Positions 17,520-18,365 of a stretch of 64,000 nucleotides of DNA are shown here, in pieces. Position numbers and translations under genes: made by a program. The notes under the pieces were generated by a model. That model was not told where the DNA came from. It saw nothing but the letters and a program-made list of their open reading frames with translations, and ran no database searches. The stretch covers positions 34,305 through 98,304 of the IMG/VR virus record IMGVR_UViG_3300033146_002768. The stretch is one strand, 5' to 3'. Positions within the stretch are counted from its first letter, which is position 1, and every line of letters begins with the position of its first letter. This stretch comes from a virus.

Positions 17520-18365
17520 ATGAGTAATGATTTACCAGATATACAAGGAACACAACCAGCTATTCAAATCCCTATAAGAGAGGTTGGGGTTGGTAATGTT
17601 CAAGTTCCATTTATTATGGAACCTATGTATGGAGATAAAGCAATCTCAATGGTTGCTAATGTTTCTATGAGAACTAATTTAGAAGCTGATGTTAAGGGAA
17701 TTTCAATGTCAAGATTGATTAGAACATTGAAAAAATATTTAGATCTTCCTTTAAAAAAGGTTTTGATAAAACGAATTCTTGTGGACTTAATGAAAAATGT
17801 TGGATCAACAGAAAGTTATATGAGATTTGATTTTCTTTATCCAATAATTAGAAAGTCAGTGTTGTCGGATAATGAATTTCCAATATTTCATCAATGTAGA
17901 TTTGAAGGACAAATGAGAGGAGATAACTTTAAATTCTTTCAGGGAGCAAATGTTCAATATGCTTCTTATTGTCCTTGTAGTGCTGAATTGTCAGGGCATC
18001 TTGAACAGAATGGACTCAAGGGATTTCCTCATGCCCAAAGATCATTTGCTAATATAATGATTGAAGGTGAGAAAGACTCTTATATCTGGCTTGAGGACAT
18101 TATAGAGTCCGTTGAGAGAGCAATAAAAACAATTCCATATCCTATTATCAAACGGGTAGATGAACAAGAGATCGCTCGTATTGCGGCAGAAAATCCTATA
18201 TTTGTTGAAGATGCAATTAGACAAATAAGTGTTGAATTAGATAATATGCCAGTTTATGATTGGATTGTTAAATGTTCTCATGAAGAAAGTATTCATACAT
18301 CAGAAGCTATTGCTGTTAACTGGAAAGGTTTGACTGGCGGATTTGATTATAAATTCTTTCTATAA
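17520..18365 (+). CDS. folE2: GTP cyclohydrolase I type 2 (FolE2/MptA family)
   Basis: N-terminal LPDIQ...IPIREVGV. KGISMSRL. CPCSAELS...HAQRS matches the FolE2 CPCSKEIS...HNQRS. C-terminal ESIHTSEAIA. RBS GAGAGGA. Confidence 0.75.
   Translation: MSNDLPDIQGTQPAIQIPIREVGVGNVQVPFIMEPMYGDKAISMVANVSMRTNLEADVKGISMSRLIRTLKKYLDLPLKKVLIKRILVDLMKNVGSTESYMRFDFLYPIIRKSVLSDNEFPIFHQCRFEGQMRGDNFKFFQGANVQYASYCPCSAELSGHLEQNGLKGFPHAQRSFANIMIEGEKDSYIWLEDIIESVERAIKTIPYPIIKRVDEQEIARIAAENPIFVEDAIRQISVELDNMPVYDWIVKCSHEESIHTSEAIAVNWKGLTGGFDYKFFL

Follow-up and report, generated by a model that had tools for sequence, protein, structure and literature searches.

7-Deazaguanine modifications of phage DNA constitute a major anti-restriction strategy. 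In the known Dpd clusters, as found in the phages 9g, CAjan, immuto, phiSM and phiST, the FolE, QueD, QueE and QueC genes are grouped together with that for DpdA (Hutinet et al. 2019, 2023), and Flavobacterium phage immuto, for example, carries a FolE-QueD-QueE-DpdA3-QueF cluster and has modified DNA (Hutinet et al. 2023). The set is not invariant: QueC is not required in the dCDG and dDG systems (PMC10516641), and some phages with deazaguanine-containing DNA have no recognisable DpdA or a very distant one (Hutinet et al. 2023, PMC10516641). As for the first step, the characterised systems begin with FolE, a zinc-dependent enzyme. The literature on deazaguanine phages names only FolE as the phage cyclohydrolase (PMC5699537, PMC10516641), and in a viromics paper from 2026 viral folE2 is placed among the auxiliary genes related to folate (PMC13288924). 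Here, we describe a FolE2 (GTP cyclohydrolase IB) gene in a 64,000-nucleotide stretch of the virus record IMGVR_UViG_3300033146_002768 (positions 34,305 to 98,304 of that record; hereafter the window, with all coordinates counted from its first base). FolE2 proved to be a fixed core gene of an entire phage lineage, a point absent from the initial annotation of this DNA, and in the relatives it is accompanied by a QueD-type enzyme.

The window is a segment of a tailed phage with 30 % GC, taken from a source contig of 207 kb, and contains T4-type terminase, baseplate, sheath and tail tube genes. The element can be described as belonging to an uncultured, low-GC, jumbo myovirus-like lineage with its own multisubunit RNA polymerase.

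A full-length FolE2 with a conserved active site

FolE2 enzymes are homotetramers that convert GTP to 7,8-dihydroneopterin triphosphate and employ Mn/Fe instead of Zn. The open reading frame (ORF) at 17520..18365 (plus strand) begins with ATG, encodes 281 amino acids and is a full-length FolE2. The ORF ahead of it ends at 17518, 2 nt before this start, so that the genes are tightly packed, and a Shine-Dalgarno-like GAGAGGA is found 6-7 nt ahead of the ATG (ribosome-binding region 17504..17519, plus strand, read directly from the sequence); terminator or promoter signals above chance were not detected between 13000 and 21000. Residues 5-265 cover positions 1-260 of the 260 positions of the Pfam model PF02649 (GCHY-1, "Type I GTP cyclohydrolase folE2") with E=1.8e-58 and 198.6 bits (cut-off 25), and the NCBIfam equivalog model NF010200 is narrowly passed (216.1 bits, cut-off 215). 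Sequence matches in the PDB are confined to the FolE2 structures 2r5r, 3d2o and 8g6c (E 1e-21 to 1e-24). An identity as MptA/GTP cyclohydrolase IV was considered as well and rejected, with scores of 85.2 bits against a cut-off of 220 for TIGR00294 and 63.2 against 468 for NF010204.

An AlphaFold (AF2) model built from 40 homologues (predicted local distance difference test score, pLDDT, 81.9) agrees with this assignment. Superposition on 3d2o, 2r5r, 5k95 and 8g6c gave target-normalised template modelling (TM) scores of 0.80-0.86 and root-mean-square deviations of 2.7-3.8 Å, with 3d2o and 2r5r at TM 0.85-0.86, and the top 11 Foldseek matches are all GTP cyclohydrolases of type IB, followed by urate oxidases, that is, members of another bimodular T-fold family. 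Together with the phage genes of the window, these results bear out the initial annotation of the gene as a phage-encoded FolE2.

For the active site, an alignment was made that comprised, besides the window protein, 140 close homologues, two solved enzymes and some 130 diverse members of the family. In this alignment the window protein retains every family-wide invariant column. The residues without variation in 150 diverse FolE2/MptA representatives are (N. gonorrhoeae numbering) D6, K56-G57, M60-S61-R62, C147-P-C149-S, H159-x-Q-R-S, K197-R-x-D200-E201, F-V-E216-D, R220 and E243-S-I-H246, and all of these are likewise invariant across the 140 lineage homologues. The corresponding motifs of the window protein are CPCS (C151, C153), HxQRS (H171), KRxDE (E215), FVED (E230) and ESIH (E256, H259), the residues in brackets being invariant over 143 aligned sequences. 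In the N. gonorrhoeae enzyme, Cys147, Cys149, His159, Glu201, Glu216, Glu243 and His246 are what we take to be the metal-binding and catalytic residues (see Sankaran 2009, Paranagama 2017). His59 and His248 of that enzyme are replaced by Ser in the window protein; both positions are variable in cellular enzymes too. The phage FolE2 thus bears all sequence hallmarks of an active enzyme and is predicted to be active.

A core gene in a fixed genomic slot

Searches with FolE2 itself fetched 36 IMG/VR loci (55-86 % identity) and one contig of a metagenome-assembled genome (MAG) from NCBI, all with a uniform gene order. The genes for RNA polymerase β' (10987-13707 in the window, plus strand, Pfam Rpb1 domains) and β (13732-16818, plus strand, Rpb2 domains) are followed by zero to three small or HNH genes, FolE2, a variable set of genes, the lineage genes cl3 (20040-20462), cl1 (20814-21578) and cl2 (22382-23107; all three on the plus strand and defined by clustering and gene order), and then capsid/terminase genes. 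All three bound the FolE2 slot downstream, and cl2, whose profile had no match in the PDB, was used as an independent anchor: as a control for circularity, relatives were re-fetched by alignment of this unrelated conserved protein, which yielded 77 new loci. FolE2 occupies the same slot in 71 of them (47-86 % identity), and five of the other six are truncated upstream, so that the gene is present in 71 of 72 informative loci. The exception, L076 (1-7400), contains cl21, cl3, cl1 and cl2 with neither FolE2 nor RNA polymerase β in the 5 kb upstream, and may represent the sole candidate for a FolE2-less member of the lineage. The synteny of FolE2 after β was read in L001-L037, L044-L120 and L229-L230 and is unchanged even around a homologue with 45 % identity.

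In comparison with JAPOGZ010000001.1 (247 kb), the closest large relative, FolE2 is 85 % identical and RNA polymerase β 82 %, which places FolE2 above most of its neighbours, and the closest cellular FolE2 proteins reach at most about 36-40 % identity. On the basis of the fixed slot, a conservation like that of RNA polymerase β and the distance to cellular homologues, FolE2 is an old and selected phage gene rather than a recent acquisition from a host. In 50,697 GenBank phage records, tblastn with FolE2 found only three matches of about 27 % identity, all in unannotated records (two named Staphylococcus phages and one human faecal "Bacteriophage sp."), which are probably host DNA. The PHROGs collection gave a weak match to an unnamed family for FolE2 and no match for the adjoining genes.

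Pfam detected no pterin or deazapurine enzyme among the neighbours of FolE2, none of which is universal. They comprise an AAA_33 kinase and ORFs of 88, 80 and 383 amino acids; some relatives additionally have an AP_endonuc_2-like TIM barrel, HNH genes, a CoaD-like gene or a phosphoribosyltransferase (PRTase). In one sub-lineage (L053-L056, ~6985-7320), a PRTase is encoded 2 kb downstream of FolE2 and is 35 % identical to gp211 from the deazaguanine cluster of immuto, which hints at a nucleotide-level handling of a base.

A QueD partner in the relatives

The PTPS family can be divided by its active-site signatures, with CxxxHGH in QueD/PTPS-I, CxxxxxHGH in the biopterin enzyme PTPS-II and ExxHGH in the folate enzyme PTPS-III (PMC5041015). 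Inside the window, no QueD was found, neither by Pfam with all ORFs of at least 90 amino acids nor by a CxxxHGH scan of frames of at least 60 amino acids. JAPOGZ010000001.1 and the window are collinear, starting at the radical SAM gene (413-1561). In this relative, a stand-alone PTPS/QueD of 142 amino acids (L143:4044-4472) is encoded on the same contig as FolE2 (L142:19628-20470) and lies upstream of both genes, at about 7.5 kb from the radical SAM gene and ~25 kb from FolE2. The gene order on this contig is gyrB, topoIV, DUF6899, QueD, SNF2, Mre11 and Rad50, followed at some distance by radical SAM, WYL, E2, JAB, ThiF, β', β and FolE2; QueD is thus situated in a block of DNA-metabolism genes (topoisomerase, QueD, SNF2, Mre11, Rad50). 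Likewise, JAPOGW010000009.1 (154 kb) encodes a Pfam PTPS protein, an HNH-QueD fusion, 6 kb upstream of the radical SAM gene, and the IMG/VR contig 3300031601_001712 contains both genes (FolE2 at L035, QueD at L126).

With the radical SAM gene as anchor, 80 IMG/VR loci were surveyed, 54 of which extend 9 kb or more upstream. A QueD-family ORF is present in 51 of these 54, its median distance upstream of the anchor being 6 kb. Thus, near-universal occurrence in the lineage applies to QueD as well as to FolE2, and by synteny with the relatives the QueD gene of the window's own genome would be expected ~7 kb to the left of base 1. A metagenome search with a fused QueD returned 13 loci, the window's own contig not being among them.

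The CxxxHGH motif is present in 55 of 58 lineage QueD copies, with CExxHGH in one copy, and in an alignment with QueD from E. coli and phage 9g the zinc-binding His residues, the catalytic Cys, the Asp-His pair and the Glu are all kept. Since these 55 copies carry CxxxHGH and not ExxHGH or CxxxxxHGH, the motif favours the 7-deazaguanine branch over the pterin, folate or biopterin branches. The initial annotation had taken FolE2 as a hint of either a 7-deazaguanine or a pterin pathway; the QueD partner now points to the former, a complete pathway being another matter (see below).

In one sub-lineage, the hybrid CExxHGH form of QueD is combined with an N-terminal Zn-finger/HNH-like domain. QueD fusions to such a domain are encoded at L124:3673-4689, L125:9377-10402, L126:7232-8266 and L228:10001-11062; their conserved N-terminal domain has ~205 amino acids, is represented in ~40 protein clusters and, in some copies, matches Ros/MucR in Pfam.

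Proposed pathway and points against it

Combining these observations, FolE2 would provide 7,8-dihydroneopterin triphosphate from GTP in a zinc-independent manner, and the QueD-type enzyme would convert it to 6-carboxy-tetrahydropterin (CPH4). Together, these reactions would represent the first two steps of the preQ0/7-deazaguanine pathway, with FolE2 replacing FolE (type IA), the enzyme of the characterised deazaguanine phages. The product would be a 7-deazapurine base that modifies the phage DNA against restriction, and the later steps, that is, QueE and then either QueC plus a transglycosylase or a nucleotide-level route, might have their genes in the remainder of the 200+ kb genome, be contributed by the host or be catalyzed by unrecognised enzymes. 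A deazapurine destined for phage DNA appears to be the best-supported end use and, in our estimation, stands somewhat better than an even chance, given that FolE2 and QueD are core genes, that QueD is located in the DNA-metabolism block and that full clusters occur elsewhere, including one with FolE2.

The latter is found on an uncultured phage contig (L038, ENA k141_593456), where genes for a QueE-like radical SAM protein, a FolE2 (38 % identical), an AAA_18 kinase and a DpdA3-like protein are located within 5 kb (L038:1690-6966). FolE2 directly adjoins the QueE homologue, and the DpdA3-like gene is 3 kb away, so that the locus has the appearance of a compact Dpd cluster built around FolE2. 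Judging from these neighbours, a Dpd pathway of a phage can be served by this type of cyclohydrolase. A second uncultured phage contig, L228, combines a QueD fusion, QueE, FolE-IA and a DpdA-like gene in a canonical cluster.

The initial annotation had called for a search for Que and Dpd homologues, which was carried out on the window and the relatives. Queries for tblastn were QueA, QueC, QueD, QueE, QueF and Tgt from E. coli, DpdA, FolE, QueD, Gat-QueC and QueE from phage 9g as well as DpdA3, QueE, QueF and FolE from immuto, complemented by small hidden Markov models (HMMs) made from these sequences and by motif scans. In total, ~4 Mb of lineage loci were covered, corresponding to ~100 kb per genome of 207-250 kb, that is, under half. 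The same HMMs recovered QueE, DpdA-like and FolE genes in the two unrelated uncultured contigs L038 and L228, which shows that the searches work on divergent phage sequences.

A number of results weigh against the proposed pathway. QueE, QueC, QueF, TGT/DpdA and FolE-IA were undetected in the window (Pfam with ORFs of at least 90 amino acids, motif scans) and equally so when tblastn, HMMs and motifs were applied to the ~4 Mb of lineage loci, and Pfam annotation of JAPOGW01 (4.5-53.8 kb) and of JAPOGZ01 (73-113 kb; ~90 kb altogether) lacks the same enzymes. In particular, the QueC motif SGGxDS is absent from all open frames of at least 60 amino acids in the window and from all ORFs of at least 150 amino acids in the lineage loci sampled, and no DpdA/TGT was found there by Pfam, tblastn (DpdA1, DpdA3, Tgt), HMM or Zn-motif, a DpdA4-type protein requiring a search at HHpred level (PMC10516641). 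Moreover, QueD has been seen in relatives only, its presence in the window's own genome being expected from synteny, and FolE2 and QueD are unclustered at a distance of ~25 kb. Finally, the lineage-core radical SAM protein (413-1561) is ruled out as a QueE by NCBIfam, by its PDB profile and by a fold search without any QueE in the top 50. A weak HMM match of QueC to the protein at the JAB position of JAPOGZ01 (E=0.002) was judged spurious. A complete phage-encoded 7-deazaguanine DNA-modification pathway is hence not demonstrated in the lineage, and the earlier expectation that the remaining pathway genes reside elsewhere in the genome holds for QueD, ~25 kb upstream of FolE2 in the relatives (51 of 54 loci), and not for QueE, QueC or DpdA in the regions covered.

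Alternative roles

Since the FolE2 product is the shared entry point to folate, biopterin and preQ0 (PMC5699537) and folE2 is already catalogued as a folate-related viral gene (PMC13288924), the enzyme could also, with or without QueD, raise the pterin/folate supply of the host for thymidylate (dTMP), purine and formylmethionine (fMet) synthesis, with host enzymes finishing the pathway and a zinc-independent isozyme that would function on in zinc-poor hosts. The failure to find downstream deazaguanine genes in the sampled loci is in line with this role, and the hybrid CExxHGH QueD of one sub-lineage is compatible with a FolB bypass. However, the pure CxxxHGH motif in 55 of 58 QueD copies is not the ExxHGH of the folate enzyme, and a top-up gene is rarely fixed in position across essentially a whole lineage that has diverged to 45 % identity. 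In addition, FolB, FolK, FolP, DHFR and thymidylate synthase were not found by Pfam among all window ORFs of at least 90 amino acids, nor were HPPK, Pterin_bind, FolB, FolC, DHFR or thymidylate synthase in the window or the Pfam tables of the relatives. We therefore regard this cofactor role as unlikely, and the label of viral folE2 as a folate auxiliary metabolic gene (AMG) is probably wrong in this lineage.

Another conceivable recipient of the pathway is tRNA. FolE2 and QueD correspond exactly to steps one and two of preQ0 synthesis, and phage-derived CPH4 might be passed to QueE, QueC, QueF and Tgt of the host, resulting in more queuosine-containing tRNA and a translation tuned to the AT-rich genome; later genes missing from the sampled phage regions are what would be expected if the host supplied them. 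Yet this scenario demands hosts with a complete queuosine pathway, the window is devoid of tRNA genes, and Tgt, QueA, QueF and QueG are absent from the sampled lineage loci. Overall, we consider it distinctly unlikely.

Alternatively, the whole lineage, with FolE2 and QueD as core genes and without QueE, QueC and DpdA, might employ non-homologous phage enzymes to process CPH4 (or dihydroneopterin triphosphate) to a hitherto undescribed compound, be it a new DNA base, a nucleotide analogue or a small molecule. A candidate would be the core radical SAM protein, encoded 6 kb downstream of QueD. The window has three radical SAM genes, as the initial annotation had noted, and its statement that none looks like QueE is supported by the lack of a QueE model match for any of the three: the twitch/SPASM-type core gene (413-1561, plus strand, called product of 349 amino acids), a SPASM-type gene that is conserved in JAPOGZ01 (26049-27092) and a PA0069/Rv2578c (SplB-like) gene (60997-61761; all classified by Pfam and NCBIfam). 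The core protein has 960 homologues and is encoded between QueD and FolE2 in all relatives; its profile matches only ChlB and MoaA in the PDB, and weakly, and its AF2 model (pLDDT 90) is closest in fold to BlsE, SkfB, SuiB, PqqE, MoaA, anSME, DesII and viperin. That QueD, the radical SAM gene and FolE2 are near-universal and lie within 25 kb, that BlsE, MoaA, DesII and viperin modify nucleosides or nucleotides, and that canonical QueE, QueC and DpdA were undetected in the sampled loci would all fit such chemistry. On the other hand, co-occurrence is uninformative in a block that consists entirely of core genes, the nearest folds also include the peptide maturases SkfB, SuiB and PqqE, and under half of each genome was sampled. 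A link of the radical SAM protein to the FolE2/QueD pathway is thus speculative, and a new product of this kind seems improbable to us.

Lastly, the location of FolE2 between polymerase and morphogenesis genes, away from metabolic genes, might suggest an inactive or moonlighting fold with a non-enzymatic role, but this is highly improbable in view of the catalytic and family-invariant residues strictly kept in 140 homologues and the pass of an equivalog-level model.

Returning to the preferred reading, a deazapurine for phage DNA, the discovery of the later steps would add a new type of enzyme and a new group of phages to the known pathway and predict modified DNA in these phages, whereas their true absence would imply a synthesis completed by the host or new deazapurine or pterin chemistry.

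The phage lineage and other genes of the window

The lineage is widespread, with hundreds of protein clusters and with relatives on contigs of up to ~270 kb, and is remote from cultured phages: a 20-kb part of the window had no megablast match among GenBank phages, and the terminase is at most 28 % identical to those of cultured phages, the best match being Flavobacterium phage immuto (28 %). Other entry points to the lineage were less productive. The segment 62738-63814 of the window and the second RNA polymerase β gave no useful relatives as anchors, the helicase at 57829-60291 gave 2 loci, with tail-fibre genes to the right of the window's end, and a search of genome contigs for relatives gave one uninformative MAG contig.

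The RNA polymerase β' and β genes of the window are unsplit. In relatives, a second, divergent pair composed of a β'-like protein (779 amino acids, L147:5558-7897) and a β-like protein (1360 amino acids, L128:2174-6256) is encoded ~40 kb upstream. A set of two polymerases, like that of phiKZ-like phages, is suggested by this pair. Adjoining the polymerase genes, a lineage-conserved set for ubiquitin-like conjugation (3303-10159) includes an E2-like gene (3303-5879), a JAB gene (5812-7005), two ThiF/E1-like genes (7018-7698 and 9260-10159) and a gene for a multi-β-grasp protein with ThiS, TGS and SAP matches (7730-8689).

Upstream of FolE2, the AAA_33 kinase is PNK-like (16819-17280), and an RtcB RNA ligase is encoded 5.5 kb downstream (23864-24997); the two are probably an RNA-repair pair that counters tRNA/anticodon nucleases. 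Between cl1 and cl2 (21586-22382), small DnaJ-CXXCXGXG/Anti-TRAP-like zinc-finger paralogues are arranged in tandem, with 3 copies in the window and up to 8 in relatives (L001-L003, L037). Homing-endonuclease genes (NUMOD3, GIY-YIG, HNH) are found at 32-376 and 1539-2522 and, in relatives, at varying sites near RNA polymerase, FolE2 and the radical SAM gene (clusters 29 and 36; L003-L005, L019, L035, L037). Furthermore, an SPFH/Band-7 domain protein of 448 amino acids (31347-32693) is encoded amid head-morphogenesis genes.

Comparison with known systems

At the enzyme level, the window protein belongs to the same family as the bacterial FolE2 proteins from N. gonorrhoeae (3D2O/5K95) and N. europaea (2R5R) and that of 8G6C, as judged by the full-length HMM match and the bimodular T-fold, and its CPCS, HxQRS, KRxDE, FVED and ESIH motifs are identical to theirs. 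Nevertheless, it is only 24-28 % identical to the solved bacterial enzymes and differs from them by an 8-residue insertion between CPCS and HxQRS as well as by a conserved C-terminal tail (K269, G274, F275). It is also phage-encoded, in contrast to the Zur-regulated bacterial locus of cellular FolE2. The archaeal MptA, an Fe(II)-dependent enzyme with a cyclic phosphate product, shares the Pfam family and fold class; the window protein, however, has the bacterial-type FVED and ESIH, whereas an archaeal-like group of ~300 amino acids has FCED and ESLH.

At the pathway level, the lineage shares the GTP cyclohydrolase I step and a CxxxHGH QueD with the Dpd clusters introduced above, but has FolE2 where the known Dpd phages have the non-homologous FolE, and a distance of ~25 kb separates its two genes, which form no cluster. 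QueE, QueC and DpdA, which are part of the known clusters, were not found in the sampled regions of the lineage. The FolE2-containing cluster of L038 likewise belongs to a different phage type, being compact and without RNA polymerase context, so that the phage FolE2 is what the two have in common. What is new in comparison with all of these systems is the use of the non-orthologous FolE2 in place of FolE, in a dispersed rather than clustered arrangement and in a new lineage of jumbo phages.

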